From the NCBI GenBank assembly GCA_965649115.1, contig CBFGJN010000029.1, positions 1 to 22,158 on the forward strand: a stretch of DNA of 22,158 nt. Reading direction: 5' to 3'. This stretch comes from a candidate division WOR-3 bacterium. Its GTDB lineage: Bacteria; Hydrothermota; Hydrothermia; LBFQ01; DSFT01. The notes under the pieces were generated by a model, which was given only the letters and a program-made list of their open reading frames with translations, was not told the DNA's origin and did no database searches. The position numbers and the translations under genes are program-made. Shown here in pieces: positions 5,774 through 22,158 of this stretch (its first letter is position 1; the number at the start of each line of letters is the position of its first letter).

Positions 5774-6977
5774 ATGGTAAATAGCTTTTTTATAACTTTT
5801 CTTATCTGCTTATTTGTATATACAATTAACTTTTTATTTCGTTTTATATTATTTAAATTTGCTATTGTTTATAATGATTCGCTTGGTGGCTCAAATATGG
5901 ATGCATTATTTTGGACATATAAAGATATAGAGTTTTTAAATGAACATTTAATCGGTTTTTCACCAAATAGAATTAACACCAATGTGGAATTTAATAGTAA
6001 TGATTTTTGATATGAATTTTAGAGCTTATTGGATAATGAATTTTTTTGTGGGAATTTTAGATATAATTTTTATGTACTTGATTGTAAAAGAATTTAATTT
6101 TTCAAATTGGACAAAAAGTATTATTCTTCTTTCAAGTATTATTTCACCATATATGTTATTTTCAAGTCTTAAAATCCGCCCCGATAACTTAGCATTTTTA
6201 TTTGCTTTAATTTCCCTTTATTTATCCTTGAAAAATAAACCCATTTTAAGTGCTATAACTTTTTCATTTTCAATCTTTGGATTTAAAGTTCAATTTTTAA
6301 CTTGGTTTTTTGTTATTTTATTCTTTAATAGAAAACACTTGATAAAATTTTTAATTACATTTCTTATATTTGGCTTTATTTACTATCTCTTCTTTTTTGA
6401 TTATGAAAAATTTATATTTTTCGGAAAGTTTGGGACTAATGTATCAAATGCTTTTGAATTTTATAAAAATATAACTTATCAAACACCATTTTCACTCCTT
6501 GGTTTTTTCTCACAAATCGGACTATTATATATCCTTGGAATTTTGATGCCAATTCTTTATAATTTTTCAATTTTTCCACCATTTCCTCTAAGAAGTTTAT
6601 ATTCAAACTTTCTCTTAAATTTAGGTGCTGGATTTTTCTTAGAAAAAAATAAATTTTTTAGAAAAATTGGAATTTCATTTTTGATTATTCAATTTGTAAT
6701 TTTGATTTATAAATTTGTTTTGGATATTTGGGGATTAAAAATTGAAAATAATTTGTATAAAACGATTTATAATCTAAAATATGTGTGTTCTCGTGAATTT
6801 CCTGCTGAAATATATGTTTATCATAAAAAAGTTGAAAATTGTAAATTTTTTTTAATTTCAAGAGGTGCTTTACATAATAGCGATATACTAGATTTAGAAA
6901 AATATAAAATTATTTATCAAGTTCCAAAAGGTTTTTCAATAAAGGAATTTTTAAAGTCAATATATAAAAAATATTGA
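5774..6977 (+). pseudogene. Polytopic membrane protein, possibly GT-C (ArnT/PMT-like) glycosyltransferase, split by an apparent frameshift near 5950-5980
   Basis: Two overlapping hydrophobic ORFs (ATG 5774..6010 and 5982..6977). The second frame is open from 5952. There is an Asp-containing loop after the first TM and an SP...IRPD-TM pattern. The family call is tentative. Confidence 0.5.
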
Positions 6978-6983
6978 TTTAAA

Positions 6984-7096
6984 GGGCAAAGCCCCCCAAA
7001 GCCTAAAAATGGGCATTTTAAAGGCGAAGCCTTATTCATAGGGTGGTTGGGAAAAAATAAGAAATAATCTATATTTCCGAATTACTAGACAAAGCA
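6984..7096 (+). mobile_element. Partial MITE-like copy (core plus right TIR)
   Basis: GGGCAAAGCCCCCCAAAGCCTAAAAATGGGCATTT is identical to 11280..11314. It ends AATTACTAGACAAAGCA. Confidence 0.85.
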
Positions 7097-7135
7097 CTTA
7101 CAATTTCTCACTAAACTTTAAAATTTTAAAACCTT

Positions 7136-9181: not shown

Positions 9182-9549
9182 AAATTGATCATATTGCTAT
9201 TGCAGTTGAAAATTTTGAGAATGCAATAGAATTTTATAAAGAATTATTACAAGTTGAACCAATTATTGAAAAAGATGAAAAGAGGGGAATAATTGTTGGA
9301 ATTTTTAAACTTGAAAACATTAAAATTGAAATTATTTCACCAATAAATGAAAATTCTGAAATTAGTAATTTTATAAGAAAGAGAGGAGGAGGAATTCATC
9401 ACTTTGCACTAAAAGTTAAGAATATTGAAAAATATAAGGAAAAATTTAAATGTATAACTGACATTCAACAAGGAATAACTGCCAAAAAAGTTCTATTTTT
9501 AGACCCAAAAGAGTACTTCAAAACATTAATTGAACTTGTAGAAGAATGA
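9178..9549 (+). CDS. VOC family protein, methylmalonyl-CoA epimerase-like
   Basis: [35 protein letters not shown]...LIELVE. Confidence 0.8.
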
Positions 9550-10973
9550 ATTTTTCATATCCATTTTTCTTATATCTTTTACCACTTACAATCATTCCAA
9601 TTATTATCCACTTAATTTTCAACATTATAAGAAGACAAAAACCTTTTCCAAACATATTTATCCTAAAAATAATAAAAGAAGAAGAAAAGGGATTTAAGAA
9701 AATCTCTGACCTAATTTTAATAATTTTAAGAATTCTTATAATTTTGATAATTATCTTACTACTTTCAAAACCATATATTAGCATTGAAAAAATCCCCTCG
9801 TTAATGGTTATAGATGTTTCTGCAAGCACAAAACCATTTAAAGAAAAAATTGAAAAAATTTCAAATGAATATCCAAATATCAAAAAATTATATATTTCTG
9901 ATAAAATTTATGAAAAGATGCCAAATCAGATGCTATCTACACTAAATTTTGAAATTCTCAAAAAAATAAATTTAGAAAACTCAATTGTTATTAGTGATTT
10001 TCAAAAAAGTAATTTTTTATCTCTTGGAAATTATAGAAAATATAAAATAGGTGAAATTTCAAAAAATAGAGCAATTCTTGATGTTAAACAAATTTCAGAT
10101 ACTTTAATAGTCAAAACAAAACTAAATGGAACTCTTGAAATTTACGAAAATGAAAAACTTATTTACATAAAACCAATTTTTGATACCATTACAAAAATTA
10201 CGAATTTGAATGTTAAAACGGGATTTTTAAAATTAAAACTACTACCTTTGGATAGTTTAGATTATGATAATTATTATTATGCATTTTTTGAACCATCAAA
10301 GACCATAAAGTTTAGGATTTTTTCAGATAAAACAACTTATAAAATACTTTCATCATTTTTAAATTCTATTTTCAATTCAGAGGAAGGAGATGATTTTATA
10401 TTCATTGATCAAAAGAATTTTCCTATTAGAAGTGTTTTAAATAAAAATTCAAAAGTAATTGTATTTTTTGATAATTTTGATGTCCCATTTGAAATAAAGA
10501 GAAATTACATTCTTAATGGTGTTGTTATTGATAGTGTAATGCTTTATTTTTCAAAGGATATTATTTATAGAAAAGAAAATTTAATTTTAATTGGAATTGA
10601 TGTTAAGGAATTGTTATTGAATCCAAAACTTGCTATTTGGTTTGAAAATTTTTTAAATAACTTAATTGGAAACTATAAGGTTTATTATTCAAGTCCTAAT
10701 GAAAGAATTAATTTCGATAAAATTATTAGAATTAGAACACCTGATGGAACAATTTTTCAAACTAATAGTATTTTAATAAACGATGTTGGATTTTATTTTT
10801 CAGATGAAGACAAAATTGTAATTTGTTCAAATGTTGATAGGAAAGAAAGCTTAAATGACTATTATGAAATCCAAAATAACAAACTTCCCAAAGTAAAAGA
10901 TATTAGTAGTTTATTAGCAATTTTACTCATTATTGTTATTTTAATTGAAATTATCTATTCAAGAAGAAGTTAA
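9546..10973 (+). CDS. BatA N-terminal domain / vWA-like membrane protein
   Basis: N-terminal F.YP.FL...IPIIIHL...PFP..F BatA pattern, DxSxS motif (VIDVSAS), VISDFQ and a C-terminal TM ending IEIIYSRR. Confidence 0.8.
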   Translation: MNFSYPFFLYLLPLTIIPIIIHLIFNIIRRQKPFPNIFILKIIKEEEKGFKKISDLILIILRILIILIIILLLSKPYISIEKIPSLMVIDVSASTKPFKEKIEKISNEYPNIKKLYISDKIYEKMPNQMLSTLNFEILKKINLENSIVISDFQKSNFLSLGNYRKYKIGEISKNRAILDVKQISDTLIVKTKLNGTLEIYENEKLIYIKPIFDTITKITNLNVKTGFLKLKLLPLDSLDYDNYYYAFFEPSKTIKFRIFSDKTTYKILSSFLNSIFNSEEGDDFIFIDQKNFPIRSVLNKNSKVIVFFDNFDVPFEIKRNYILNGVVIDSVMLYFSKDIIYRKENLILIGIDVKELLLNPKLAIWFENFLNNLIGNYKVYYSSPNERINFDKIIRIRTPDGTIFQTNSILINDVGFYFSDEDKIVICSNVDRKESLNDYYEIQNNKLPKVKDISSLLAILLIIVILIEIIYSRRS

Positions 10974-11004
10974 GTAATAAAAAGGGAAAAAAGCATTAAA
11001 CAAC

Positions 11005-11179
11005 TGCTTTGTCCAATAAATCATATTAAGTTGCTGAAATTCTTGATTTTAAGGGGGGTCTAATGGGGGGCAAAGCCTCCCGAAGCAGAAAATATGGGCA
11101 TTTACAAGCGGAAGGCTTATTATTAGGGTGGATGGAAAATAAAGAAAAATAAACAATTTCATAATTATTGGACACACTA
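11005..11179 (+). mobile_element. MITE-like element with both ends, internally shortened
   Basis: Left TGCTTTGTCCAATAAAT, right ATTATTGGACACACTA (degenerate inverse), with the shared G-run/hairpin core between them. Confidence 0.85.
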
Positions 11180-11187
11180 AAAAAGCT

Positions 11188-11350
11188 TGCTTTGTCCAAT
11201 AAATAATTATAAGTCCTTGATTATCAATAGTTTATAAAAATTTTAAAGAAGTTATTAATTTAATGGGGGGTCTAATGGGGGGCAAAGCCCCCCAAAGCCT
11301 AAAAATGGGCATTTATAAGCCGAAGGCTTATTATTAGGGTGGGTGGGAAA
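11188..11350 (+). mobile_element. MITE-like element, left TIR plus core; right TIR not recognisable
   Basis: TGCTTTGTCCAATAAATAAT...GGGGGGTCTAATGGGGGGCAAAGCCCCCC...TAAGCCGAAGGCTTA...AGGGTGGGTGGGAAA. In tandem with the previous copy. Confidence 0.85.
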
Positions 11351-11389
11351 CAACAATAATTTATAAGCTTTTTCCTTTAAAATTTTACT

Positions 11390-11530
11390 ATGACCGAATT
11401 AGAAATAGAGAAATTAAGAGCTGAAATTGAAATTAAATTACAAGTTATGAAAAACTCTTTACTAAAATGGATTATTGGTTTAATTTTAAGTCAAACACTT
11501 GTTATTGTACTCGCAATAATTTTGAAGTAG
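11390..11530 (+). CDS. 46-aa coiled-coil plus C-terminal TM protein, resembling the DUF1640/CCDC90 C-terminus (not in the ORF track)
   Basis: Hand translation gives MTELEIEKLRAEIEIKLQVMKNSLLKWIIGLILSQTLVIVLAIILK*. TAAAAT lies 6 nt upstream of the ATG. Confidence 0.65.
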   Translation: MTELEIEKLRAEIEIKLQVMKNSLLKWIIGLILSQTLVIVLAIILK

Positions 11531-11545
11531 GGATAATCAAAGAAC

Positions 11546-12571
11546 TTAAACAACCATTCTCTTTACCCTATTCCCAATTGATGTTAAAATTACATATGGA
11601 ATTTTATTTAATTTTTTTGATATTTCCAATACATTTATATTTTCTCCAAAAATTTCAACCAAATCTCCCTCTTGTAAATCATCCCCATCAATAACTGAAC
11701 TATCCATTGAAATTCTTCCAAGAACTTTTCTAAATTTATTCTTTGCAAAGACATATAATAAATTACTACCTTCAATAGGAAAACCATCTGCATAACCAAA
11801 TGATATAATAGCGACTTTCATATCTTTTTCTGCTTTAAATGTTCTTGAATAACCAATAGTTTCACCTTTTTTTACAAATTTTACTTGAATTACATCACAT
11901 TTCAAACTCATAACAGGTTTTAAATCCAAAAATTTTCCTAAGAATTCTGATGGATATATTCCATACAATCCTAATCCAATTCTTATAAAATCAAGATAAT
12001 AGTTATATCTTAATGATGCTGATGTGTTTGATATATGTTTTTTTACATTTAAATTTTTCACGACGCTTATAAATTTTTCATATTGAATATAACTAAAATC
12101 ATCAATTTCATTATCTGCATTAGAAAAGTGAGAATAAACACCTTCAACTTTAACAAAATTTTTAACTTCATTATAGAATTTTTCAAATTCTTCATACCAT
12201 ATTCCTGTTCTATTCATTCCTGTATCAATTTCAATCTCAACTCTTGGCTTTATTTTCAATTTTTTTATAACCTCAAGCTGTCTATAAGAGCATAAATTAA
12301 ATATAAAATCATTTTTATATGCTAAATAAATTTCATCTTCATTATAAATTGGCTTTAAAATAAGAGTATCTTTAAATTTTAATTTTAGTGCTTCTTCTAA
12401 ATCAAAAACTGCTATTTTTTTAACTCTATCTTTAATAATTTGAAAAATTTCATTTATTCCATGACCATAAGCATTTGATTTAAGAACAGGTATAATTTCT
12501 GTTTTTGTCTTTTGTTTAAATTGCTCAAAATTATAAATTAAATGTTTTGAATTTATTTGAGCAATTATCAT
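11546..12571 (-). CDS. alr: Alanine racemase
   Basis: PLP-lysine motif PVLKSNAYGHG, IDTGMNRTG, YSHFS.AD, RIGLGLYG, IGYSRTF, GYADG, GRISMD. Confidence 0.96.
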   Translation of the reverse strand: MIIAQINSKHLIYNFEQFKQKTKTEIIPVLKSNAYGHGINEIFQIIKDRVKKIAVFDLEEALKLKFKDTLILKPIYNEDEIYLAYKNDFIFNLCSYRQLEVIKKLKIKPRVEIEIDTGMNRTGIWYEEFEKFYNEVKNFVKVEGVYSHFSNADNEIDDFSYIQYEKFISVVKNLNVKKHISNTSASLRYNYYLDFIRIGLGLYGIYPSEFLGKFLDLKPVMSLKCDVIQVKFVKKGETIGYSRTFKAEKDMKVAIISFGYADGFPIEGSNLLYVFAKNKFRKVLGRISMDSSVIDGDDLQEGDLVEIFGENINVLEISKKLNKIPYVILTSIGNRVKRMVV

Positions 12572-12923: not shown

Positions 12924-13679
12924 TTATTTTTGTTGTATAAAAACACTTATGTTTGATATTTTTGGTAATGAAGAATACGGAAACTCTATAATTAACCCCC
13001 CAGAGACATCAACTACACATACTTTTTCAAAAATTCTTGTTTTTGTTTCATAACAATTTTTTACATAATTAACTCTTATATTTTTATTCTTTTTTCTTTC
13101 AAGATAATTTTTATATTCTTTTTCATTAGGAACAACTATAAAATTCATTGGTTCCTGACTTTCAACTTTAACATAGTATTCAGCTTTCTCCAATGAACAA
13201 AATCTTAAAAATAGTGATTCTCCTGTTCTAATTTTACTTCTGAAATTATAATCATATTCAAGTTTCGTATTAGTATATGGATACATGATGTCATTAGGAT
13301 TGTTCGTATGCGAAAATCCTAAAATATGTCCCAATTCATGAGTAGCAATTTTAACAATTGTTTCATAGTTAAATGGTCTCCAATTACCATCACAACTACT
13401 ACTTCCTAATCCAATTTGAGCAACATAAATAACTGCTTGTCCAATTCTTTCATAGTTTGCTTTCTCAGGTCCAAATTCTTTTATCCATTGTACTAAAACA
13501 TTGTACCTTGTTGAATCCTTTGTCTCTCTTATATTGAAACCTTTATCTTGCCAATATGCAATTGCTTCTCTAATAGCAGAATAATAATTTCTTTTATCAG
13601 TTATGTAATAAGGAGGTTCACTAATATAAACTACAAAATGTATGCTATCTTGTAAGCTTAAAACTAAATAAAATATCAT
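12924..13679 (-). CDS. Matrixin-like (metzincin, M10-type) zinc metalloprotease with a C-terminal extra domain
   Basis: HELGHILGFSH (HExxHxxGxxH), Met-turn DIMYP and an upstream AIREAIAYWQ helix. Start overlaps the stop of the preceding gene (ATGA). Confidence 0.88.
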   Translation of the reverse strand: MIFYLVLSLQDSIHFVVYISEPPYYITDKRNYYSAIREAIAYWQDKGFNIRETKDSTRYNVLVQWIKEFGPEKANYERIGQAVIYVAQIGLGSSSCDGNWRPFNYETIVKIATHELGHILGFSHTNNPNDIMYPYTNTKLEYDYNFRSKIRTGESLFLRFCSLEKAEYYVKVESQEPMNFIVVPNEKEYKNYLERKKNKNIRVNYVKNCYETKTRIFEKVCVVDVSGGLIIEFPYSSLPKISNISVFIQQK

Positions 13680-14371
13680 CTCTTTTTATAAAATATCAAA
13701 AACTCTACCCTTCTATTCAGTGATTTCTTTTCTTCATTACTATTTGAAGATATTAGGCTATCTTCATCAAAATAACTATCTTCATAACGATTAACTGGTT
13801 TATACTCACCAAATGAAGCCGCCGATATTAAATATCGTGAAGGAGATATCCCAATAGAATCCTTTAAAAAATAAAAAATTTCAAATGCTCTCAATCCAGC
13901 AAGTTCAAGATTCGATCTAAATTTCGTTGTTGGATCTGTATCAGCATGTCCCTCTATTTGAATTCTTTGAATACAATCAAGATTTGATCTTATAGCATTT
14001 CCAAGATATTTAAGAATGCTATAACCTCTTTTTGAAATTCTATAATCATTTTTATCAAAAAGAAGGCCAGTGCTAACTCTTATTCTTTGAAGTTGGAGTT
14101 CATTTATAAGGCTTATATAGTATTCACCATAGTTATCATTAAAATAAATAGTATAAGCATTTTCTAATGAGTCTATTTTAGTAAATTGCGAATTTTGAAG
14201 GAGTAAATTTTTCATTTTTTCCTGACAGGATATTGCTTTTGTAATATCAACATATTTTAGAATTATTAAACTATAAGCTACTGAAAAAGCAAAAATCACT
14301 AAAAGAACCAAAAAGAGCATAAAATCTACAAAAGGAGGCCAAAAATTAAGATTTTCTTTTATTAATTTCAT
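13676..14371 (-). CDS. MotB/ZorB-like protein: single TM with conserved Asp plus OmpA-like peptidoglycan-binding domain (start probably ATG 14371)
   Basis: FWPPFVDFM before the TM helix, LLFDKNDY, IQIEGHAD, NLELAGLRA, SFGEYKP, NRRVEF. Confidence 0.88.
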   Translation of the reverse strand: MKLIKENLNFWPPFVDFMLFLVLLVIFAFSVAYSLIILKYVDITKAISCQEKMKNLLLQNSQFTKIDSLENAYTIYFNDNYGEYYISLINELQLQRIRVSTGLLFDKNDYRISKRGYSILKYLGNAIRSNLDCIQRIQIEGHADTDPTTKFRSNLELAGLRAFEIFYFLKDSIGISPSRYLISAASFGEYKPVNRYEDSYFDEDSLISSNSNEEKKSLNRRVEFLIFYKKR

Positions 14372-15803
14372 TTCCTTTTTTACCAAGGGCAAACCTAAAT
14401 AAAATTGGAGTATCAAAAGTTTTCACCAATTTTTCAATAGAAAAAATTAAGGGTTTCAATTCTCGGATAGCTTCCGATATATTGTTGGCGCTTTCAGAGA
14501 TCCTCCCTATTTTTTCTTTCACTATCTCTTCAAACAAAGTTAATTGATTACTAAGATGTAATAATGAATCATTCAAATTTTTAATAGGTTCCCCAAGATA
14601 CTTACTTATTCCACTTTCTAATCCTTCCTCTACTGCTTTCTCAAGGCTTTCTCTAATAGTTTTTATCTCTTTTAACTCATCAATAGATTTTTCTAATTTC
14701 TTATTAAATTCATCAATTGTTTCTCTAAAATTATTAAAAGAATACTCAATAGATTTAAGTTTTAAAGGTAAGTCAGTTTTTATTGTATCTTCAAGGTTCC
14801 TAAATGTTTGAATGTAAGTGTTGTAGATTTTTTCTATGGTTGAAGGTAAGTTATTAGTAAATTGATTTAGACTAACTAAATTAACATTAAGTTCATCTAA
14901 TTTTTGATTTAGATTTTTAATTTCTTCTGTGAAATTTAATAAATCATTAACTTTATTGTTTAAATCACTCATAATAATTGTAGTTTGGTTTATAGCTTCT
15001 GCCAATTTCTGATATTTTTCATTCACATTATCTAAAACTTGATATGTTTTGCTTATTTTTTCAATCATTTCATCTAACCTATTGCTAACTTCATTTATAC
15101 TTTTCCCAACATTATCTAATGATACTATAAGAATATTATTTATAGTTTTAATCGTTTCGTTTAATTCCGAAGTTATAAATTTTGGCAAATTATACAATTC
15201 ATTTATACCTTTTCTGATATTATTGGACACTTCATATAACCTTTCAAATATATCCTTTAAATCCGACATAGTTGAATTAAATTTCTCCAATTGTTCGGAA
15301 ACCTTAGCTAATTCTTCTAATTTTGACAAATTGGATACTAAATCGTTAAAATTTTCAACTTCATAACTCTGTGAAAAATAAATTCTTTCAATAATAGTTA
15401 ATTTCAAAGTTCCCCATATCGTAAAATATACACCTAATATACTTGGTATAAATACCAGTTTTATCTGAGATAGTAAATTCTTTAAATTTGACGTTATTTC
15501 TGCCTGTGTTCCACCTACAAGGTTATATAATCCATAGAATGAAAATGCTAAACTTATTAATGTTCCAAAAAGACCAACTATTACAAAAATTGAATTTATA
15601 TTTCTCATAACTATTATATTTTTCTGATTTGGCGAATAAGATATAACCTCAAAATATATAAAAAGCAAAAGTAGGAAAAGCAAAACTGAACTTACAACTA
15701 TAAACTCATCACCTGAAAAAAATACGATATTAGGTAATATGAAAAAGCTAGATATTAACCATAAAAATAAAAAACCCATAAAATCAATAATGAAGTTAAT
15801 CAT
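14346..15803 (-). CDS. MotA/TolQ/ExbB-like (ZorA-like) membrane protein with a ~340-aa helical/coiled-coil tail
   Basis: Hydrophobic N-terminus with VGLFGTLISL (compare GLLGT..GL) and VFIPSILGV (compare AF.TS..G), followed by a long heptad-rich region. Overlaps the MotB-like gene. SD AAGGAGG. Confidence 0.78.
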   Translation of the reverse strand: MINFIIDFMGFLFLWLISSFFILPNIVFFSGDEFIVVSSVLLFLLLLFIYFEVISYSPNQKNIIVMRNINSIFVIVGLFGTLISLAFSFYGLYNLVGGTQAEITSNLKNLLSQIKLVFIPSILGVYFTIWGTLKLTIIERIYFSQSYEVENFNDLVSNLSKLEELAKVSEQLEKFNSTMSDLKDIFERLYEVSNNIRKGINELYNLPKFITSELNETIKTINNILIVSLDNVGKSINEVSNRLDEMIEKISKTYQVLDNVNEKYQKLAEAINQTTIIMSDLNNKVNDLLNFTEEIKNLNQKLDELNVNLVSLNQFTNNLPSTIEKIYNTYIQTFRNLEDTIKTDLPLKLKSIEYSFNNFRETIDEFNKKLEKSIDELKEIKTIRESLEKAVEEGLESGISKYLGEPIKNLNDSLLHLSNQLTLFEEIVKEKIGRISESANNISEAIRELKPLIFSIEKLVKTFDTPILFRFALGKKGNEINKRKS

Positions 15804-15806
15804 ACT

Positions 15807-17024
15807 TTACCTCCTTATTAAACCTCTTAAAAGAATTTTATATTCTCCATTATCATCTTTTTCAAGAAAAGCAAACTTTTCAACTTCGTAATTTTCAGTA
15901 TCTTCATCAAAAGCTATATCATAATATTTTGATATATATTTATATGTTCCTTCTGGGAAATACTCCTTCATTCTATTGGGTGGTGATTTGTAAACGCCTG
16001 CTACTGGTATAATTAAATATATAGTTTTACCTGGAATTCCTTCAAAGTCCATTAGTACTTTAAGATTGAAACCAACAAAGAGAACATCAGGCATATAAAC
16101 AGGTATTTTCTCTAAATTTGCTTTGAAGTAAATAATCTCTTTAATGTTTTTTTTCATTTCATGAAGGTTTCTTTTATGTAAATATTCAGGATACGTGTAA
16201 TTATATAATTTTTCCTCTAATTTTTTTCTTTCTTCTCTTGCTATTATTTCATAGATTCTTTGAAGATTATCCTCTATCTTATTAACTCTTTCATCAAATT
16301 TTGTAACTATTTCCTTTTTTACCTCAGATACTTTTTTATCAACCTTTTCTTCAATACGCTTTTCAACATTACTAACACTTTGATTTACTCCATTTATCTG
16401 TTCTTTTAATTGATTTATTTCCCTTTCAACTTTTGAATCTGTAGTTTTTAATCTATCTTCTAAATTCTTAACATCATTTTTAACTTCACTTATTTTACTA
16501 ATAATTTGGTCATATTTTTGCGATTCCTGTAAGGTTTCTTGAATTTTCTTAATAGCATCATTAACTATTTCCTTGATTTTAAGAGTATCAACATCAGGTA
16601 ATTGTCCTTTTAGAAAATTTATAATTTCTTCAAATTTCTTATTGAGATATTTCTCAAGCTTTTCTCCATCAAACCTTTGTCCATCCATAGTCGCTAACCT
16701 CCCCTTTATATCATTTAAAAATTTTTGTAACTCTTCTTTATTTTTACGTTGTTTTTTATTTTGTAAGAAAATTAATGCTAATACACCACCTAATGCTATT
16801 AAATTCAAACTAGCTAAACCAATTAGAATATAATTAATAATCATTATAAATGAAAATTTTTTGTCCTGTTTCTGTTCTTGTTCTTTAATAACACTTTTCA
16901 AAAATGATGTATCAATGACATACTCACTTACATTTTTAGTTTTTTCATTCCCTGTTTTCTCTTTTTGAGCAAAAGAAACACCAAAAGACAAGAAAAAGAT
17001 AAAAAAGGAAAGAATTCTTATCAT
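15807..17024 (-). CDS. Membrane-anchored coiled-coil protein of unknown function
   Basis: Signal-peptide-like N-terminus (…GVSFA-Q), TM at about aa 58-87 followed by a basic cluster, long K/E heptad region and a ~130-aa C-terminal globular segment. SD AAGGAGG. Confidence 0.8.
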   Translation of the reverse strand: MIRILSFFIFFLSFGVSFAQKEKTGNEKTKNVSEYVIDTSFLKSVIKEQEQKQDKKFSFIMIINYILIGLASLNLIALGGVLALIFLQNKKQRKNKEELQKFLNDIKGRLATMDGQRFDGEKLEKYLNKKFEEIINFLKGQLPDVDTLKIKEIVNDAIKKIQETLQESQKYDQIISKISEVKNDVKNLEDRLKTTDSKVEREINQLKEQINGVNQSVSNVEKRIEEKVDKKVSEVKKEIVTKFDERVNKIEDNLQRIYEIIAREERKKLEEKLYNYTYPEYLHKRNLHEMKKNIKEIIYFKANLEKIPVYMPDVLFVGFNLKVLMDFEGIPGKTIYLIIPVAGVYKSPPNRMKEYFPEGTYKYISKYYDIAFDEDTENYEVEKFAFLEKDDNGEYKILLRGLIRR

Positions 17025-17026
17025 TT

Positions 17027-19975
17027 TTAACCTCCTTTTAAAGCTTTCGAAAACATTTCTCTAATTTTTTCACCAAAACTCAATGTTATAGGTTTTCCTT
17101 TCTTTTTCAATTCCTTTCCAATATCTCCATTATCCATTAAGAGATATTGAGCATCATCACTTGTTCTAAATTCTATCCACACATCTTGAAATTCAATGTT
17201 AATTTTTTCCTCAAAATAACTATTGAAAGTTTGTTTCACAGTATTAAAGTAATACTTCAAGCGGTCTTCTGCTTCTTCCTTATTAATATCATTGAAAAAG
17301 TCTATTTCTTGTTTTATATCATTATCAATTTTCTGATTGCTATTAGTCATATTCAATAATCCATCAGCAACTTCATGTTTCGGAAAATACGAAAAATCAA
17401 TTACAAAACTTGGACTATCTAAAAAAGAACCAAAAATCCTCTCTATAACACTTCTTTCCCTCCCATTAAATACGAACCTTAAAGTTCTTGAACCATTTCC
17501 AAGCAAACCCACATAAAAGTTTTTATTTACCTCCTCTAACTTAGACTGTAAATATCTAAGATATGAACCAATTGTAGCAAATAAGTTAATATAGGATAAA
17601 GCTATTAACATCCTTGCTTTTTGTTTCATTTCTTCATCTTTAATAATATCGGTTAAAAACTTACCCTTATCAAGATAATTTCTTATTTCTTCTTTAGATA
17701 AGCTTGAAAATTCCCTTATATTTCTTATTATTATATCTTCACCTGCATATTTAATAGAAATGTGCCCTTTTATCTCTCCTCTTGACCAAACACAAAAATC
17801 AGTAGAACCGCCTCCAATATCAATAGCACATCCAAGATCAGCTCCTCTACGATCCCTAGAATAGAATATAGCCACTGATTCGGGAAAACTTTTCAAAACT
17901 TCTTTTAAATCTTTATCTTTAATCTTTCCTTCTAATGCCGACTTCCAATCATTATAAATAGAATCAATATCTTCTTTTTCCATAGATGTAGGATAAGAAT
18001 AAATAATTTTAATTTCCTTAGAGTTTTTGAATTTTCTATAAACATCTATGAAATATGCTAATTGTTCTATGTACTTTTTTAATTCCTCTTTCTTATTCCA
18101 TTTTATATTTGATTGTATTCTTCCACTTTCTTTCTCTTCTTCACCTAAATAGATATGGCTTGAAAGAAAAGGTTCTTCTTTTTTGTAATCAAATACATAT
18201 AATAGTGTTCTGAAAAATCCTTTATCACTATTACCAAAAATATCTTTATAAACATTAAATGTTTTGTCTAATAAGAAAACTTTTGCCAATTTCTTTTCCA
18301 AATCCTTGGAAATGTTAGAGGGAATAAGAACTTTTAGAAGTTCATCTTTAATTCCAAAATCAAAGATCCCAATTTTATCTTCTTCTTTATACTTTATTAT
18401 TGTATTAGTTGTTCCTATATCAACAGCAAAGTAAATGACATCTGATTTTGTAGGGGAAACATCCTTTACAGAATCTTTATTTACATAATATACACTTTCA
18501 GTGTCTCTGCCATTAAAACCTATAAATATAGGCAAATTTCCTAATTTATATACCCATATTCTCCCCTTTATATCGTTATCATCTTTTATTTCCAAGGTAT
18601 GAGAACCATTTATTATATCTTTTGGATAAACTTCAATCTCATTTATCAAGTTCCTTGATACATCATCAGAAACATAAACAAAAAGGTAATACTCATCTAA
18701 ACCTTTAACCCAAGGATAAAGCATTACAATTAGTTTATTAGATTCTAATTTATTTACTTCAATATAACTCTTTTCAAAAATTAATTCTTCATATTCTTCA
18801 TAATTCGTTCTTATGGTATCATTTTCAACTTTCATTCCTTTTAAAATTTTATCTATAACATCTTTATCTTGAACATCATCTATCAATTTTCTATATAATA
18901 TCGGTAATAGATACTCTGAATCAATTCTTATAAGTTTTGGTGAAAAATAATCTTCAACCGATATGAATTTCACATTTTTCTCCCTTTCAATATCAGATTT
19001 ATTTCTCTTTAATTTTTCATAATCCGTTTTGGTATAACTATAACCTTGATATATTATTCTTGATTTATTTTCTTTTTTCTGATTTGGTAAAATTATAACT
19101 TTATAATTATCTATTCCGAAAACTTTCTTTGCTAAATAATCTGATATTTCTTCATGTTTCAATCCCCTCCAAAATTTTATAATTGTTTCAAGAGGATAAT
19201 CTTTTAATTTTTCTTCATCTTTTTTAATATTTTCGATAATTTTTGTTATTTCATCTTCTTTTACTCTTTCGGGTAACTTTTCTCCTAATTGCTTAATCAA
19301 TTTTTCTAAAAATCTATAAAAATTATCGCCATAATCTAAAATTTCTCTTAAGTTTATTAGAAGGCTTATAAATTTATAAAATTCCTTTGATTTTTTTTCA
19401 TCTAATTCGTTAATAGGATTTAAAAAGTGATCTTTAAATAATTCGTTTCCAAGATCAGGATTTATTTCCTTACGCTCATCAGGTGAATAAATAATTTTAG
19501 GTATTAAGAAAAGTTCTTTATTAGAGATAGCTATCGGAATTTCTTCAAAAAGTAGAATTTCTATATTTTCAACATTACCAAATAGTCTTTTAAATTGAGG
19601 ATCCTTGAAAATTTCTTCGTTTTCTGGATGAACTTTTTCAACTTTTAATTTTTCTGGATGCAAAGCAATTGTATATAAAATTCCTGAAATTTCATTAGAG
19701 ATTAAATCATGTAAGAAAAATTTTTCACTTTCAGGTTTTTCTATATTTTCTAAAAATTTTCCATATAGAAAAGTTTTAGCCCAAGGGGTAGGAATTGATA
19801 ATAATAATTGTTCCTTTTGTCTAAATGATAATTCCTTAAAATTTACCTTACTGCTTACACTTGATAAGGTCCTATCCATAAGACTAAAATCTTTTTTAAC
19901 GAGAAAATTATCAGCACTTTCCCTATCGCTTCTACTTTCAGCTTTGGTATAAATGACAACTTTTCTCTCTGCCAT
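17027..19975 (-). CDS. Large protein with C-terminal actin/Hsp70/FtsA-superfamily ATPase domain (start probably ATG 19975)
   Basis: Five ASKHA motifs in the expected order: AVDIGTTNT, FPESVA, IDIGGGSTD, GLLGNGSR, PKHEVADGL. Preceded by about 500 aa with an SIPTPWA motif. Confidence 0.85.
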   Translation of the reverse strand: MAERKVVIYTKAESRSDRESADNFLVKKDFSLMDRTLSSVSSKVNFKELSFRQKEQLLLSIPTPWAKTFLYGKFLENIEKPESEKFFLHDLISNEISGILYTIALHPEKLKVEKVHPENEEIFKDPQFKRLFGNVENIEILLFEEIPIAISNKELFLIPKIIYSPDERKEINPDLGNELFKDHFLNPINELDEKKSKEFYKFISLLINLREILDYGDNFYRFLEKLIKQLGEKLPERVKEDEITKIIENIKKDEEKLKDYPLETIIKFWRGLKHEEISDYLAKKVFGIDNYKVIILPNQKKENKSRIIYQGYSYTKTDYEKLKRNKSDIEREKNVKFISVEDYFSPKLIRIDSEYLLPILYRKLIDDVQDKDVIDKILKGMKVENDTIRTNYEEYEELIFEKSYIEVNKLESNKLIVMLYPWVKGLDEYYLFVYVSDDVSRNLINEIEVYPKDIINGSHTLEIKDDNDIKGRIWVYKLGNLPIFIGFNGRDTESVYYVNKDSVKDVSPTKSDVIYFAVDIGTTNTIIKYKEEDKIGIFDFGIKDELLKVLIPSNISKDLEKKLAKVFLLDKTFNVYKDIFGNSDKGFFRTLLYVFDYKKEEPFLSSHIYLGEEEKESGRIQSNIKWNKKEELKKYIEQLAYFIDVYRKFKNSKEIKIIYSYPTSMEKEDIDSIYNDWKSALEGKIKDKDLKEVLKSFPESVAIFYSRDRRGADLGCAIDIGGGSTDFCVWSRGEIKGHISIKYAGEDIIIRNIREFSSLSKEEIRNYLDKGKFLTDIIKDEEMKQKARMLIALSYINLFATIGSYLRYLQSKLEEVNKNFYVGLLGNGSRTLRFVFNGRERSVIERIFGSFLDSPSFVIDFSYFPKHEVADGLLNMTNSNQKIDNDIKQEIDFFNDINKEEAEDRLKYYFNTVKQTFNSYFEEKINIEFQDVWIEFRTSDDAQYLLMDNGDIGKELKKKGKPITLSFGEKIREMFSKALKGG

Positions 19976-19980
19976 AATTT

Positions 19981-21405
19981 TCACCCCCTTTCAACCTTCT
20001 CTAAGCATTGTCTTATTTTGTTATCCTTCTGAATTTCCCCATATATATTTTTAATCAAATTCTCATAGGTGTCTAATATGGTTTCGCTTTTGCTATAAGC
20101 ATTACTTAAATAATGTTCAAACCTCTTTCCAAGCACTTTTTTAATCTCTTCAAGAGCTTTCTTTTGATAATCATCCATTTGACCTTTATATTTCCTCCTA
20201 CTTTTTGAAAGAAGAGAATATCTTACCGAAAAGTAATATTTAATATAACTTTGGGCAAAAGTTAAAACATTTGGCTCATATTTTTCAAATTCCTTAAATA
20301 ATTTTCCTAAAAGTTTCTTATTCTTGTTCTTATCTTCTTCAATAAAATGAGAAATTATTACAGAAGCAAGTAATCCTGAATCAAGTCTTAAAATTAAATC
20401 TCTAATTTCTTTTTTATCATCTTCATATAAGTTATAGATGTAGTGCTGATTATCTTCAATAAGTCCAATAAGATATAAACTCTTTTCTTCTATCTTTTCA
20501 TCAAATCCATCAACCAAATGTTTAGCAAAAATAATAGTTAAAGCTTCTATAAAATGAGCTGGATTTTCTTGACTAGAACCACCTAAGGAATATTCTATTT
20601 CATCACTATCCATTTGAAAAATATCTGGTAGTCCAATAGCACAAGCATAATCTGCTCCCTCAAAACCCTCAAAATTTTTCTTATTTAGATAAGCATGATA
20701 ATCAAAAGCAAGGACGGATTTGAAAGGAAATGATGAGCCCGTAGGAGATATTTTATCCTCCAATCCTTCCCTAACTTTAAAATAAGGTAAAACCATTATG
20801 TTCATTATTTTAATTTCCTTACCTTGTTCTTTCCTTTTAATTATTCCTGGCAGTATAGGTAATATGGAAGCTCCTGTTCCACCAAAAACTGAACCACATA
20901 TACAAATACGAGAATTATTATTTATATTACCAAAAATTGATTGATAATTGTTTTCTATTTCCTTTCCTACACTTAACGTTCCAATTGCTGGCAAACCCCT
21001 AAAACCTTCCTTCAAATCAAAATTTAATTGCTCATTTGTATATAAAAAGTTTATTAATTTTTCATATTTTTTTCTTTCATTAGATATTATATCTCTAAAA
21101 GTTCCTTCCGATAATGGAACAAAGGGTGATTTTCTAGGGTAAATATCTTCAAATTTTGTAACGAAGAAAGCAAATCTTTCCTTATTAGTTATATTTACTT
21201 TTTCCCTAAGTTCATTATATAATTTAATAGTTTCTTGTGCTCTAATTAAATTTCCATTTTCACGATCTTGATCTATTAGCAAAAATTTAACTTCTCTTTC
21301 TCTTCTAAAATAACCTATAAAAGAAAGCCAAACTAAACTTTCTATAACACGGGCACCTGTTCCCCCAACGCCTATATATAAAAAGTCAAAATTTTGCTCC
21401 TGCAT
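19981..21405 (-). CDS. Divergent tubulin/FtsZ-superfamily GTPase (Tubulin_2 / FtsZ-like)
   Basis: IGVGGTGARVIE (T1-like), LLIDQD, GFRGLPAIG (T3-like), GSVFGGTGAS (tubulin signature variant) and VLPYF. SD AAGGAG. Confidence 0.88.
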   Translation of the reverse strand: MQEQNFDFLYIGVGGTGARVIESLVWLSFIGYFRREREVKFLLIDQDRENGNLIRAQETIKLYNELREKVNITNKERFAFFVTKFEDIYPRKSPFVPLSEGTFRDIISNERKKYEKLINFLYTNEQLNFDLKEGFRGLPAIGTLSVGKEIENNYQSIFGNINNNSRICICGSVFGGTGASILPILPGIIKRKEQGKEIKIMNIMVLPYFKVREGLEDKISPTGSSFPFKSVLAFDYHAYLNKKNFEGFEGADYACAIGLPDIFQMDSDEIEYSLGGSSQENPAHFIEALTIIFAKHLVDGFDEKIEEKSLYLIGLIEDNQHYIYNLYEDDKKEIRDLILRLDSGLLASVIISHFIEEDKNKNKKLLGKLFKEFEKYEPNVLTFAQSYIKYYFSVRYSLLSKSRRKYKGQMDDYQKKALEEIKKVLGKRFEHYLSNAYSKSETILDTYENLIKNIYGEIQKDNKIRQCLEKVERG

Positions 21406-21420
21406 AACATTTACTCCTTT

Positions 21421-21870
21421 TTAAAAAGGCCAACTTAAAAATTCAAATATTTTGTATCTATATATCCCTATATCTTTCTTAAAAACACTAACTAGTAAAA
21501 TTCCAGCAAGATAACCAAGAATACCTAAAAATGTAAATAAAAATGAAAGCAAACCCTCACCACTTTCTATATAATCTGACTTGTATGAAAATTTAAAAAC
21601 AAAATTTTCAAGAAATAATAATAAACTAATTATAATAAGGGAGAGAATAAAAGAGTTCTTATAACTCCAATATAATTTATATCTCAAAAACCAAAAAACC
21701 CCAACTGAAAAAGCAATAATAAAAAGATTTATGAAAAAGATCCATTTTGAATAAGGCAACCAGTCAGATTGAACAATATCAGGTTTTAAAACAAGAAAAC
21801 CTTGGGTTAAAAGGAAAGTTGGTAAAAACCAGGCAGCAAATAGACCTATAAGCCCAATAATGATAAACAT
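21421..21870 (-). CDS. Small four-TM membrane protein of unknown function
   Basis: Four hydrophobic segments in 149 aa. SD AGGAGG 7 nt upstream of the ATG. Confidence 0.78.
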   Translation of the reverse strand: MFIIIGLIGLFAAWFLPTFLLTQGFLVLKPDIVQSDWLPYSKWIFFINLFIIAFSVGVFWFLRYKLYWSYKNSFILSLIIISLLLFLENFVFKFSYKSDYIESGEGLLSFLFTFLGILGYLAGILLVSVFKKDIGIYRYKIFEFLSWPF

Positions 21871-21873
21871 AAA

Positions 21874-22061
21874 CTACCCTCCTATTAGATATATGTTAAA
21901 TCTTCCTATCTCGTTATCATATACTTTTATAACTGAATTTATAAACTTGTATAAGTTGTAGGTTTTGGAACCTTCAAACTCCTTTGGATTTTTTAACCAT
22001 AAGTTTATCTTAGTTATATCCATATCTTTTTCTTTTACCCAATTAGGAATTTGATTAGAAT
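21874..22061 (-). pseudogene. 3' end of a gene interrupted by the MITE-like element
   Basis: The first 13 codons of the listed 75-aa ORF lie inside the repeat. The remainder (…IPNWVKE…SKTYNLYKFINSVIKVY…LIGG*) is protein-like and ends with the SD of the next gene, as other genes of this operon do. Confidence 0.6.
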
Positions 22062-22158
22062 TGCTTTGTCCAATAATTATTGTTAAGCGATTGATAATCA
22101 ATAATTTATAAAATTTTTAAGGAAATTGTTGATTTATTGGGGGGATTATTAGGGGGGC
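22062..22158 (+). mobile_element. MITE-like element, left part, running off the window
   Basis: TGCTTTGTCCAATAATTAT...TTGATAATCAATAATTTATAAAATTTTTAAGGAAATTGTTGATTTATTGGGGGGATTATTAGGGGGGC is collinear with 11188..11283. Confidence 0.88.

Follow-up and report, generated by a model that had tools for sequence, protein, structure and literature searches.

The DNA analysed here, a window of 22,158 nucleotides which is the entire contig C29, carries one copy of a conserved, envelope-spanning accessory system which is patchy and horizontally scattered. Eight open reading frames on the minus strand fill positions 12924-22158. They follow each other in the order g0 (the ORF 22101..21874), g2, g3, g4, g5, g6, g7 and g8, and successive frames overlap or leave gaps of at most 15 nt, as the initial annotation had described for eight co-directional, tightly packed genes. 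The composition postulated there, a ZorAB-like pair, a tubulin-like GTPase, an actin-fold ATPase, a coiled-coil anchor and a metalloprotease, was reproduced in all its family calls, and the idea that these parts make up one coupled system is supported by the recurrence of the arrangement across phyla. Because of this recurrence the gene arrangement is far beyond chance. As to function, we give about an even chance to a conflict system, anti-phage or anti-mobile-element, which is triggered at the envelope.

The first gene of the system, g0, has its 3' end at 21874..22158 (minus strand) and codes for a vWA-like lipoprotein which is ~394 aa long in relatives. It had been called a remnant, and this was not borne out; it is an intact gene divided by a contig break. 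Its C-terminal 61 residues are 62% identical to residues 333-393 of an intact 393-aa gene, the first gene of this operon in a genus relative, and the assembly has its 5' part on another contig, C56, at the contig end (G000:C56:11297-12334), where residues 10-333 are matched at 9.5e-89. The two contig ends have 9 nt in common, and the g0 reading frame is not continued in the final ~100 nt of C29. Since the 5' part is on C56 the true start of the system, a complete first gene, lies beyond the window. The metagenome relatives L092-L094 have an intact g0 of 394 aa. In the g0 family the lipobox Cys is nearly invariant, a DxSxS motif is present, and there is a weak match to the TRAP vWA (E 0.053). 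The following gene, g2 (21421..21870, minus strand), codes for a small integral membrane protein of 149 aa, and the four transmembrane segments assigned to it agree with four hydrophobic segments at residues 1-23, 40-64, 69-88 and 106-132. Pfam, NCBIfam and PADLOC hold no family for g2; an ORF of 128-210 aa occupies its position in nearly all related loci.

The g3 gene (19981..21405, minus strand) encodes a 474-aa protein, a short FtsZl1-type GTPase of the tubulin/FtsZ fold with a helical C-terminal part. The tubulin-like assignment is confirmed by a Pfam Tubulin_2 match of 32.8 bits (cut-off 27), by GGTG at residues 14 and 175, invariant in both loops across the family (452 homologues, ~465 aa), and by a predicted model (pLDDT 80, pTM 0.86) in which the GTPase domain is compared to solved structures with Z 13.6 for CetZ2 and 13.4 for FtsZ. 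The best 16 structural matches are tubulin/FtsZ throughout and span residues 5 to ~310-330; a tubulin C-terminal activation domain is not recognisable when the model is compared to structures. The 985-aa product of g4 (17027..19984, minus strand) consists of a conserved N-half (~1-510) with a SIPSPWAR-like motif, which received no fold assignment, and a C-half (513-889) with the actin/Hsp70 (ASKHA) ATPase fold. This fold had been proposed from the letters of the sequence, and it is upheld by the motifs DIGTTN at 522 and DIGGG at 722 and by the predicted model of residues 513-889, which resembles MreB (Z 19.5, rmsd 4.0, 280 aligned) and also BeeR (Z 19.4), FtsA (18.1) and HSP110 (17.7). The profile of the g4 family, which has 2237 cluster representatives at E<=1e-30, finds MreB in the PDB at 9e-9, and FtsA and DnaK too. 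In two natural fusion proteins, of 1706 and 1623 aa, a g3-like domain and a full g4-like region are parts of the same chain (hhalign probability 100%).

Downstream of this core lies g5 (15807..17024, minus strand), a membrane-anchored coiled-coil protein of 405 aa with a small conserved C-terminal domain. It has hydrophobic segments at the N-terminus (1-20) and at 57-89, the latter a TM segment followed by matches to Pfam and PADLOC families which are weak and of coiled-coil type, in keeping with the earlier call. Mean column identity in the positional family is 15%, yet a C-terminal block is common to it. The g6 protein (14346..15803, minus strand; 485 aa) is a ZorA-like channel subunit of the MotA/ExbB family with a helical tail of ~330 aa. 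It matches PADLOC ZorA2 at 5.6e-10 and Pfam MotA_ExbB at 16.4 bits, under the 22.9 cut-off. GLxGT is invariant in the family, and the proposed likeness to MotA/ZorA with a long tail is borne out by the family profile, which among solved structures matches ZorA 8qyd_A best (1.6e-12 over 11-515) and 8vvn_C next. The partner subunit g7 (13676..14416, minus strand; 246 aa), whose start is likely the ATG at 14371, is ZorB/MotB-like and has one TM helix with a conserved Asp and an OmpA-like peptidoglycan-binding domain. It matches OmpA with 44 bits (3e-11) and PADLOC ZorB1 at 6.8e-13, and its profile matches the solved structures of ZorB (8vvn_B, 4.4e-23) and MotB (6ysl, 2.1e-21). The family has W and D as invariant residues, and the invariant TM Asp of the FSDLM block is aligned to the Asp of both ZorB and MotB, as expected from the MotB/ZorB-OmpA call.

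The last gene, g8 (12924..13679, minus strand), codes for a 251-aa matrixin-type metzincin with a C-terminal extension of ~110 aa. The metzincin call is secured by Peptidase_M10 (36.7 bits, cut-off 24) and the motifs HELGHILGFSH and IMYP. No clear signal peptide is seen in g8, whose N-terminus is weakly hydrophobic and broken by charged residues. Orthologues which are 81% identical occupy the same position in L092-L094; in the window's lineage the position is taken by a metzincin. The initial annotation made the metalloprotease a part of the system; it is present, but it is one of several interchangeable hydrolases at this position. When the gene next after the ZorB-like gene was counted in the 35 loci having such a gene, it was Trypsin_2 in 13, retropepsin-like in 7, a 312-321 aa protein without family in 5, a small ORF without family in 3 (with a subtilase next in one of these) and a DUF4011 helicase in 1; four loci have no gene there and in two the contig ends. 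The second gene after the ZorB-like gene is an SNase in 4 of these loci and an Endonuclease_NS in 1. Export signals were read on the N-termini of 11 terminal proteins from other loci: a lipobox-type Cys is present in six Bacteroidota proteases and one SNase, and a Sec-type signal in four Poribacteria proteins. Since most of these hydrolases carry lipoprotein signals, the periplasm is, judged from these N-termini, the likely site of the effector in those relatives. The trypsin-like protein of locus L003, the sole one scanned with PADLOC, resembles the protease domain of the RT-Protease_XI model (6.9e-17). Families of helicases, HNH proteins and other nucleases were not found in the eight window proteins by Pfam and PADLOC scans, and the absence noted earlier is upheld for these proteins.

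The core of the system, g0-g2-g3-g4, keeps its order across ~80 loci from many phyla, and g4 adjoins g3 in 79 of 81 loci. Co-occurrence was counted in the 57 loci that extend 8 kb or more downstream, 39 non-cyanobacterial and 18 cyanobacterial. The former have g4 in 39/39, g0 in 37/39, the ZorA-like TM domain in 34/39 and the ZorB-like gene in 33/39; the cyanobacterial branch has kept the tubulin/actin core, with the ZorAB-like pair in 0/18. The initial annotation would have been refuted by a pair that does not co-occur with the tubulin and actin genes in other genomes; it was not refuted, the pair being present with them in 33-34 of 39 non-cyanobacterial loci, and the cyanobacterial branch is the exception. 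At least 571 stretches in the species-representative genome set carry the g3 family, and the record titles name Cyanobacteria, Bacteroidota, Poribacteria, Nitrospirae, Cloacimonadota, Acidobacteria, Leptospiraceae and others. A survey of 272 genomes of the window's phylum turned up the g3 family in 3, and g4 was present in 2 of 41 relatives, the window's genome being counted in both cases; g4 is only 35% identical to the copy of the genus relative. In a tally without a control set and with labels of our own, 21 of 87 flanking proteins have domains of mobile elements or nucleic-acid conflict, among them BrxL, Abi_2, DUF4011, Uma2 (twice), integrases (two), transposase parts (three) and a group II intron RT. 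Many other flanks, above all in the cyanobacterial loci, consist of housekeeping genes, and this branch looks to have been kept vertically to a greater degree. The system in the window is itself flanked by the housekeeping gene alr, and on the C56 side by divergently oriented housekeeping genes.

No characterised system matching the locus was found in PADLOC-DB or in the literature, and PADLOC-DB 2.0 has no models for g0, g2, g3, g4 and g5. The closest precedents, FtsZl1-vWA-OmpA/MotAB operons and tubulin/HSP70 conflict systems, are purely bioinformatic. The novelty is lower than was implied earlier, a link between FtsZl1-type tubulin, vWA, MotA and MotB-OmpA being on record (Makarova & Koonin 2010, PMC2875224). 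In the available text of that paper membrane remodelling is proposed for the FtsZl1 operons, and Additional file 5 gives vWA, long FtsZl1, 'MotA/TolQ/ExbB' or B7, and COG1360/OmpA in Anabaena, Cyanothece and Deinococcus. Like the present locus these operons have a Tubulin_2/FtsZl1-type GTPase beside vWA and OmpA/MotB-type proteins, a 'MotA/TolQ/ExbB membrane protein' or family B7 preceding the COG1360/OmpA gene, a patchy distribution, and nothing that corresponds to the canonical C-terminal domain of tubulin. The FtsZl1 described there is a single protein of ~1000-1100 aa with a tubulin domain, a long coiled coil and a helical domain, whereas here the 474-aa tubulin protein is followed by a separate ~1000-aa actin/Hsp70-fold protein, which that text does not describe for its operons. 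It reads the OmpA proteins as beta-barrel porins, and stator unit, tail and swappable proteases do not appear in its discussion; the diverged GTPase and protein kinases of its operons were not found in the window proteins.

The systems for which Kaur, Burroughs, Iyer & Aravind 2020 (PMC7159879) predicted conflict roles also resemble the locus in the portions of the paper at hand, since they combine tubulin homologues, HSP70-fold proteins, TM/extracellular vWA proteins and peptidases, and their NTPases are proposed to be multimerising switches. They are, however, defined by DO-GTPase and GAP1 genes, and among the eight window proteins no P-loop GTPase family turned up; the tubulin theme is reported to be confined to firmicutes and actinobacteria, and MotA has no occurrence in this text.

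The model which we prefer, at the even chance given above, is a conflict device set off at the envelope. As in Zorya, the ZorB-like subunit would be fixed to peptidoglycan, and a disturbance of the envelope would gate ion flow through a 5:2-type unit of ZorA-like and ZorB-like subunits. The periplasmic vWA lipoprotein would probably use its MIDAS site to act as sensor or adaptor. Relay of the signal could fall to the ZorA-like tail together with the coiled-coil protein, and its receivers would be the tubulin-like GTPase and actin-fold ATPase. Since fusions of these two occur in some organisms, they may act as a single NTP-dependent switch or polymer. The swappable hydrolase would be the output, the metzincin here and in other lineages lipoprotein proteases of trypsin-like or retropepsin-like type together with SNase or Endonuclease_NS, which might attack proteins or DNA of the invader in the periplasm or cleave a component to arm the system. 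Points in favour of the conflict reading are the terminal gene swapped between lineages, the patchy distribution, ZorA/ZorB as closest solved relatives of g6/g7, the mobile-element and conflict domains in flanks, the export signals on terminal proteins of other loci, the RT-Protease_XI likeness of the L003 protein, and the prediction in the portions at hand of PMC7159879. Points against it are the housekeeping flanks at the window and many other loci, the seemingly vertical cyanobacterial branch without the motor, the four loci with no gene after the ZorB-like one, the window metzincin without clear signal peptide, and the five genes without PADLOC-DB 2.0 model; periplasmic proteases and nucleases are also compatible with nutrition or envelope turnover.

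A clearly less probable reading, though one to be taken seriously, is a machine for membrane remodelling or envelope maintenance, along the lines put forward by Makarova & Koonin for FtsZl1 operons. Both NTPases would give shape to, constrict or repair the inner membrane wherever the peptidoglycan-anchored motor marks a site, and turnover of the envelope would be the task of the exported protease or nuclease. The family context agrees with the FtsZl1-vWA-OmpA description in the available text of PMC2875224, every non-NTPase part is a membrane or periplasmic protein, housekeeping genes flank the window's copy and many cyanobacterial loci, and family scans found no toxin-like cytoplasmic effector in the window. 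A core machine would not be expected in just 3 of 272 genomes of a phylum or at 35% identity within a genus, nor would a terminal swap among four protease classes and nucleases, and filament formation is uncertain because g3 has no recognisable activation domain. The patchy distribution and the terminal nucleases likewise do not fit a machine for surface adhesion or gliding-type force transmission, analogous to Agl-Glt of Myxococcus, in which the ion-driven stator and cytoskeletal NTPases would move or unmask the vWA lipoprotein as an adhesin processed by the protease. We consider this improbable. Analogous parts do exist, namely a MotAB-type motor, an actin-fold protein, a GTPase and a lipoprotein with a MIDAS motif, a parts list which presumably parallels CglB and AglRQS of Myxococcus; no Glt or Agl homologue was identified beyond the generic MotA/MotB fold, and the carriers (gut Bacteroidales, sponge Poribacteria, planktonic cyanobacteria) have no common motility habit.

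Hardly any likelihood is left for an ordinary Zorya of type I, II or III with unrecognised effector genes, even though g6 and g7 find ZorA and ZorB as their top matches in both PADLOC and PDB. Anti-phage Zorya (structures 8qyd, 8vvn, 8vvi; Mariano et al. 2025, PMC11890865) consists of ZorAB with ZorC/D or ZorE. The locus shares with it a MotA-family subunit whose cytoplasmic tail is long and helical, and a MotB-family subunit with TM Asp and OmpA-like peptidoglycan-binding domain. Zorya identity was rejected: ZorC, ZorD, ZorE, ZorF and ZorG are matched by 0 of 32 proteins from the window and three related loci, and g6 reaches 14-23 bits against the NCBIfam ZorA models, whose curated cut-offs are 190-500. 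The pair is accompanied by a different, conserved gene set of tubulin-like GTPase, actin-fold ATPase, vWA lipoprotein and exported hydrolases, whereas the partners in Zorya are cytoplasmic nucleases or helicases.

A weak lead only is the SrfABC operon (SrfB, PF07520). In hmmscan of 21 members of the g4 family SrfB gave no match at E<=0.01, and the window's genome yielded no PF07520. Among named Atlas clusters, those closest to the N-half of g4 bear SrfB, with scores of 0.78-0.80, where scores below 0.9 count as leads only, and the sizes given for SrfA (51 kDa) and SrfB (114 kDa) in the accessible part of PMC6950479 are similar to those of g3 and g4.

The eight minus-strand open reading frames (ORFs) which run from position 22101 down to 12924, with spacings of 2-15 nt or overlaps, belong to a gene system that is real, conserved and present in several phyla, and that fits best as a variant, with a Zorya-like motor, of the FtsZl1-vWA-MotAB operons predicted by bioinformatics. 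The genes are called g0 and g2 to g8 in the order of transcription. The families which the initial annotation had assigned to the seven genes g2-g8 were all reproduced with tools (hydropathy, motifs, Pfam and PADLOC). The contig, C29, is one of 99 in an assembly of 1.85 Mb with an estimated completeness of 94.5%, and the G+C content of the window is 22-31%. The system's own flanks are housekeeping genes; ordinary genes fill positions 1-12571 (a probable methylase fragment, RadC, PNPase, S15, GlyS, EF-G, a glyoxalase-fold protein, a BatA-domain protein and alanine racemase). A search of the window with Rfam gave no match, and a terminator-like site 3' of g8 is absent.

The 3' end of g0 (21874-22158) had been described as a remnant. 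The gene is instead split by a contig break: over its last 61 residues it shares 62% identity with the C-terminal end of a 393-aa protein which is the head of the same operon in a relative of the same genus (the genus relative), and residues 10-333 of that protein match the extreme end of contig C56 of the same assembly (9.5e-89), where the 5' ORF at 11297-12335 (locus L087) runs off the contig end. The ends of C56 and C29 have only 9 nt in common. In the final ~100 nt of the window, which finish in G/C-rich runs, the g0 reading frame is not kept, hinting at a tangled assembly or at variation between strains at the end of C29. Because the genes upstream on C56 run on the other strand, the operon begins with g0. 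In metagenome relatives with a 66% identical g3 the g0 gene is whole (394 aa), and the full order is g0-g2-g3-g4-g5-g6-g7-g8 followed by a 341-aa ORF where the window has alr.

The MIDAS motif of vWA domains is DxSxS. An alignment of 21 positional g0 orthologues has a consensus block DxSxSM matching this motif, with S57 invariant, and a Cys that is almost invariant and follows a hydrophobic N-terminus; most rows have lipobox-like residues before it (endings FYGC, LTSC, FWGC etc.). The Pfam vWA models have no match in g0 proteins; the g0 profile matches the vWA domain of TRAP weakly (E 0.053), and among named Atlas clusters VWFA lies nearest (score 0.76). On these sequence features g0 is read as a putative vWA-like lipoprotein.

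The g3 protein (474 aa) scores 32.8 bits against Pfam Tubulin_2 and that of the genus relative 27.8 bits, the cut-off being 27. The hallmark of tubulin and FtsZ is a glycine-rich T1 loop together with the T4 signature GGGTG(S/T)G. The nucleotide loops of g3 read GVGGTGAR at residues 12-19 and FGGTGAS at 174-180, and G14, G15, T16 and G17 as well as G175, G176, T177 and G178 are invariant in 24 family members. A model built from this 24-row alignment (pLDDT 80, pTM 0.86) was compared with 48,161 representative chains; the 16 best all belong to the tubulin/FtsZ family, with CetZ2 at Z 13.6 (rmsd 3.5, 181 residues aligned), FtsZ at 13.4 and OdinTubulin at 13.0, and with PhuZ, BtubA and TubZ also among them. 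The matches span residue 5 to about 310-330, and other folds reach Z<=8.8. The N-terminal domain of g3 is thus, as modelled, of the tubulin/FtsZ GTPase fold. In the canonical C-terminal activation domain the T7 loop completes the active site of the neighbouring subunit within the filament. Residues 332-474 of g3 are helical in the model and have no structural match, in agreement with a passage of the 2010 paper by Makarova and Koonin (PMC2875224) which describes FtsZl1 proteins as lacking a recognisable counterpart of the canonical C-terminal domain. Q279, N281 and E287 are invariant in the g3 family, which has 452 homologues of about 465 aa in a large protein collection.

Members of the actin/Hsp70 superfamily share phosphate-1 and phosphate-2 motifs and a fold of two lobes. 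The g4 protein (985 aa) carries the motifs DIGTTN at 522 and DIGGG at 722, and D522, G524, D722, G724 and D729 are invariant in its family. In its model (pLDDT 70) residues 513-889 match MreB 4cze_A (VIA) at Z 19.5 (rmsd 4.0, 280 residues aligned), followed by BeeR (Z 19.4), FtsA (18.1), ParM (18.0) and HSP110 (17.7); Foldseek concurs. The model thus assigns this segment to the actin/Hsp70 (ASKHA) fold. A family profile of 21 rows finds MreB (9e-9) and next FtsA and DnaK, while g4 itself stays below the Pfam cut-offs (MreB_Mbl 15.7 bits against 27, FtsA 15.6 against 31.8), and not one of the 21 members rises above them. The N-terminal half shows conservation, e.g. in SIPSPWAR, and had no fold match in two structure searches of g4, because the ASKHA domain filled both. 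Predicted complexes of this half (residues 1-510) with g3 scored 0.27, 0.48 and 0.00 in three runs against a mark of 0.32, which speaks neither for nor against a contact. Two single chains, P0276 (1706 aa) and P0277 (1623 aa), begin with a g3-like domain and match the g4 profile over 977 and 895 columns (hhalign probability 100%). Judged by these profile matches, the tubulin-like and actin-fold NTPases are therefore fused in nature.

Of 1.84 billion cluster representatives, 2237 belong to the g4 family at E<=1e-30 and 3263 at 1e-10. One g4 relative, P0274, is 54% identical and, according to one source, comes from a "Candidatus Hydrothermia bacterium" MAG. A tblastn search with the window's g4 found no match in 50,697 phage records, and a Bacteroides g4 had one match in 72,556 plasmid records, an unannotated 1.77-Mb Prevotella replicon. 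For residues 1-510 of g4 the named Atlas clusters that come nearest (0.78-0.80) carry Pfam SrfB, and SrfA and SrfB (51 and 114 kDa as published) resemble g3 and g4 in size. A relation of g4 to SrfB found no support in HMM searches (0/21 members at E<=0.01). The PF07520 profile found nothing in the window's genome, 14 control genomes and E. coli K-12, a weak search because the control genomes had no member.

The predicted motor is encoded by g6 and g7. The best PADLOC match of g6 (485 aa) is ZorA2 (5.6e-10), with a weak match to MotA_ExbB; the top solved match of its family profile is ZorA 8qyd_A (1.6e-12, covering the TM region and the tail) and the next 8vvn_C, from a structure cited in a Zorya paper (PMC11890865). 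The NCBIfam ZorA models give 14-23 bits with g6 against cut-offs of 190-500. The g7 protein matches OmpA (3e-11, 44 bits) and PADLOC ZorB1 (6.8e-13), and its profile finds ZorB 8vvn_B (4.4e-23), MotB 6ysl (2.1e-21) and ZorB 8qyd_F (1e-16). W11 and D16 of the block FW(P/T)SFSDLM are invariant in 17 orthologues, as are the OmpA-type motifs N..L...R and NRR, and the invariant Asp aligns with the TM-helix Asp of ZorB 8vvn_B and MotB 6ysl. The types of Zorya are set by the effectors beside zorAB, which are ZorC and ZorD, ZorE, or ZorF and ZorG. The PADLOC models for these five effectors match neither the eight window proteins (E<=1) nor any of 24 from three related loci (E<=1e-5), and since ZorC, ZorD, ZorE, ZorF and ZorG are thus missing, the system is ruled out as a Zorya; its motor is Zorya-like. 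PADLOC-DB 2.0 holds no model for g0, g2, g3, g4 or g5 of the window or of Bacteroides, Poribacteria and Nostocales representatives.

Two further membrane proteins are encoded by g2 (149 aa), with four hydrophobic segments by hydropathy, and g5 (405 aa), with an N-terminal hydrophobic segment, a TM segment and matches of the coiled-coil type only. The iterative profile of g5 drifted onto the coiled-coil tail of g6, and therefore positional orthologues and curated alignments were used.

FtsZl1, the basis of Pfam Tubulin_2, was defined in 2010, and the passages of that paper used here describe operons in which it stands together with vWA proteins, a diverged GTPase, kinases and proteins of the OmpA family, and for which membrane remodelling was proposed (Makarova and Koonin, PMC2875224). 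Entries in its Additional file 5 for Anabaena, Cyanothece and Deinococcus list, in this order, a vWA or hypothetical gene, a long FtsZl1 (1070-1097 aa), B7 or "MotA/TolQ/ExbB membrane protein", and a COG1360/OmpA "flagellar motor protein", so that a link between tubulin, vWA and MotAB has been on record since 2010. The initial annotation was largely right on the composition of the system and overstated its novelty, given this precedent. Those parts of the 2010 paper do not describe the split form, in which the tubulin is short and the actin-fold giant a protein of its own, nor the likeness to a tail-bearing ZorA or the swappable exported hydrolases. The FtsZl1 architecture described there comprises a domain resembling FtsZ, a long coiled-coil region and a helical C-terminal domain in ~1000 aa, whereas g3 with its 474 aa does not have this long architecture. 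According to the same source FtsZl1 was, as of 2010, missing from hyperthermophilic Thermotogales and Aquificales. A search for the long-FtsZl1 operon in five cyanobacterial genomes with the ZorB-like profile gave weak MotB-like matches, and the one region examined was unrelated.

Kaur et al. (2020, PMC7159879), in the sections used here, predicted conflict systems of firmicutes and actinobacteria in which DO-GTPases and GAP1 occur with tubulin/HSP70 and vWA. These systems need a TRAFAC-class DO-GTPase, whereas the window operon has no P-loop GTPase family (none in its eight proteins at E<=1); the text of the paper nowhere mentions MotA. In the full-text literature searched no paper describes this gene set.

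A scan of one genome per species with g3 gave at least 571 confirmed stretches, the best 80 of which were fetched with their flanks and, with the genus relative, make up 81 loci. Within this best-80 set a g4 homologue follows g3 in 79 of the 81. Curated profiles were applied to the 57 loci of the set with >=8 kb downstream of g3, by their record titles 39 non-cyanobacterial and 18 cyanobacterial. Among these best-matching loci g4 is found in 39/39 and 17/18 and g0 in 37/39 and 15/18, respectively; the ZorA-like TM domain is present in 34/39 non-cyanobacterial and 0/18 cyanobacterial loci, and the ZorB-like gene in 33/39 and 0/18. The expectation that the MotA/B-like pair accompanies the tubulin and actin genes elsewhere is thus borne out by 33-34 of the 39 non-cyanobacterial loci among the best 80 of at least 571. 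The loci with the pair are labelled Bacteroidota, Poribacteria, Nitrospirae, Cloacimonadota, Pyrinomonadaceae and Leptospiraceae, with a few MAGs titled Clostridia or "bacterium". In the cyanobacterial branch g0 is divergently transcribed, other conserved genes of no family lie 3' of g4 (L011, L023, L028 and L041), and a second g4-like paralogue of 730-994 aa occurs (loci including L002, 13450-15678); the Xenococcus locus has a TPR-CHAT protein.

Nearer to the window the system is rare. Counting the window's genome, the g3 family is found in 3 of 272 genomes of the phylum (2 of 181 of high quality) and g4 in 2 of 41 relatives; the g4 of the genus relative is 35% identical to the window's. A metagenome scan with g3 as single query gave no relative, and one with an alignment as query gave 9 loci. 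Metagenome contigs were found for both divergent versions of the system. These versions (loci L095-L099 against L092-L094, and L084 on G002:C55) occur in the same genus and in related metagenome records, and their g3 and g4 are only ~33-35% identical; in the second version the sequence of the fetched loci stops with no further gene after the ZorB-like one.

The flanks held 184 candidate ORFs, and the 87 scanned were the nearest ones of >=150 aa. Domains of mobile elements or nucleic-acid conflict, by our own labels and without a control set, were seen in 21 of the 87: BrxL, Abi_2, DUF4011, PDDEXK_1, SNase, HNH, DUF4143, RhuM, Endonuclease_NS and a group II intron RT, and further Uma2 (two), DUF3987 (two), AAA-ATPase_like/PDDEXK_9 (two), integrases (two) and transposase parts (three). 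Another 21 of the 87 have no family, and the remainder are ordinary genes. The tally hints at a conflict setting and is, for want of a control, suggestive only. In the Pyrinomonadaceae MAG locus L060 the system is flanked by a PD-(D/E)XK nuclease, an SNase protein and a DUF4011/AAA_11 helicase (Hhe-like) at 4308-7833 and 18064-21000, surroundings which look like a defence island. The Maribacter locus L044 has a BrxL gene upstream of the system.

The last gene of the window operon, g8, scores 36.7 bits against Peptidase_M10 (cut-off 24). Matrixins are marked by the zinc site HExxHxxGxxH and a Met-turn. With HELGHILGFSH at 114 and an IMYP Met-turn at 131, g8 is by its motifs a matrixin-type (M10) metzincin; orthologues 81% identical occupy the same position in three metagenome loci. 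Elsewhere the position is filled differently. Among the best 80 of at least 571 stretches and the genus relative, 35 loci have a ZorB-like gene, with 45 downstream ORFs, of which 43 were scanned and two, encoding a transposase and a DUF4011 helicase, were already identified. Next on the 3' side of the ZorB-like gene comes a gene for Trypsin_2 in 13 of the 35 loci, a retropepsin-like protein in 7, a protein of 312-321 aa without family in 5 (Poribacteria), a small ORF without family in 3 (once followed by Peptidase_S8) and a DUF4011 helicase in 1; in 4 loci there is no gene and in 2 the contig ends. The second gene is an SNase in 4 of these loci and Endonuclease_NS in 1. N-termini were read for the window metzincin, where the N-terminus is weakly hydrophobic, and for 11 terminal proteins of other loci. 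A lipobox-type Cys is present in 6/6 Bacteroidota proteases and in the one SNase read, and a Sec-type signal with a C-terminal hydrophobic segment in 4/4 Poribacteria proteins read. The trypsin-like protein of locus L003, the sole one so scanned, matches the protease domain of PADLOC RT-Protease_XI (6.9e-17).

The predicted place of g3, g4 and the tails is the cytoplasm and that of g2, g5, g6 and g7 the membrane; the vWA-like lipoprotein and most of the hydrolases are predicted to lie beyond the cytoplasm. On the model of Zorya and the predictions of 2020, the vWA lipoprotein and the ZorB-like subunit, which binds peptidoglycan, would detect a disturbance of the envelope, and this would gate ion flow through the ZorA-like/ZorB-like unit. 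The ZorA-like tail and the coiled-coil protein might relay the signal to the two NTPases, the tubulin-like and the actin-fold one, in the role of a switch or polymer that depends on NTP. As output, the hydrolase module would either attack proteins or DNA of the invader in the periplasm or arm the system by a cleavage.

We give an even chance to the general proposal that the system is an envelope-triggered device against invaders. Membrane remodelling, as proposed in 2010 for FtsZl1 operons, or membrane repair is a good deal less probable, and a machine for adhesion or gliding would surprise us greatly; the rest of the probability goes to something not yet thought of. The most specific form of the defence proposal is a new class of immune machine, in which a peptidoglycan-anchored, ion-driven ZorAB-like rotary unit, with input from a periplasmic vWA lipoprotein, would control a tubulin/actin-fold assembly at an envelope breach and so deploy or arm lipoprotein proteases and nucleases that destroy an invader crossing the periplasm. 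We regard this form as rather unlikely; if true, bacteria would have a defence whose switch is made of both cytoskeletal folds and which acts before DNA enters the cytoplasm. The lipoprotein proteases and nucleases point to periplasmic action, which would be unusual among known defences.

The core genes (g0, g2, g3 and g4) are without a name or Pfam family, the tubulin domain excepted, and their carriers include gut Bacteroidales, sponge symbionts, bloom-forming cyanobacteria and hot-spring lineages. The system is a test case for the role of long-tailed 5:2-type motors outside Zorya, for the purpose of the divergent FtsZl1 tubulins, a question open since 2010, and for tubulin and actin folds as assembling switches in bacterial immunity, predicted in 2020. 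Orthologues in cultivable relatives of Bacteroides, Maribacter or Trichodesmium make it testable.

In the remainder of the window two ORFs of 90 and 331 aa between glyS and fusA (5738-6977) have no Pfam family. A 143-aa ORF at 108-539 matches N6_N4 DNA methylases at profile positions 161-213 of 221 only, and because the match is limited to their C-terminal part the ORF is probably a methylase fragment; it adjoins a RadC-like JAB-domain gene (594-1232).
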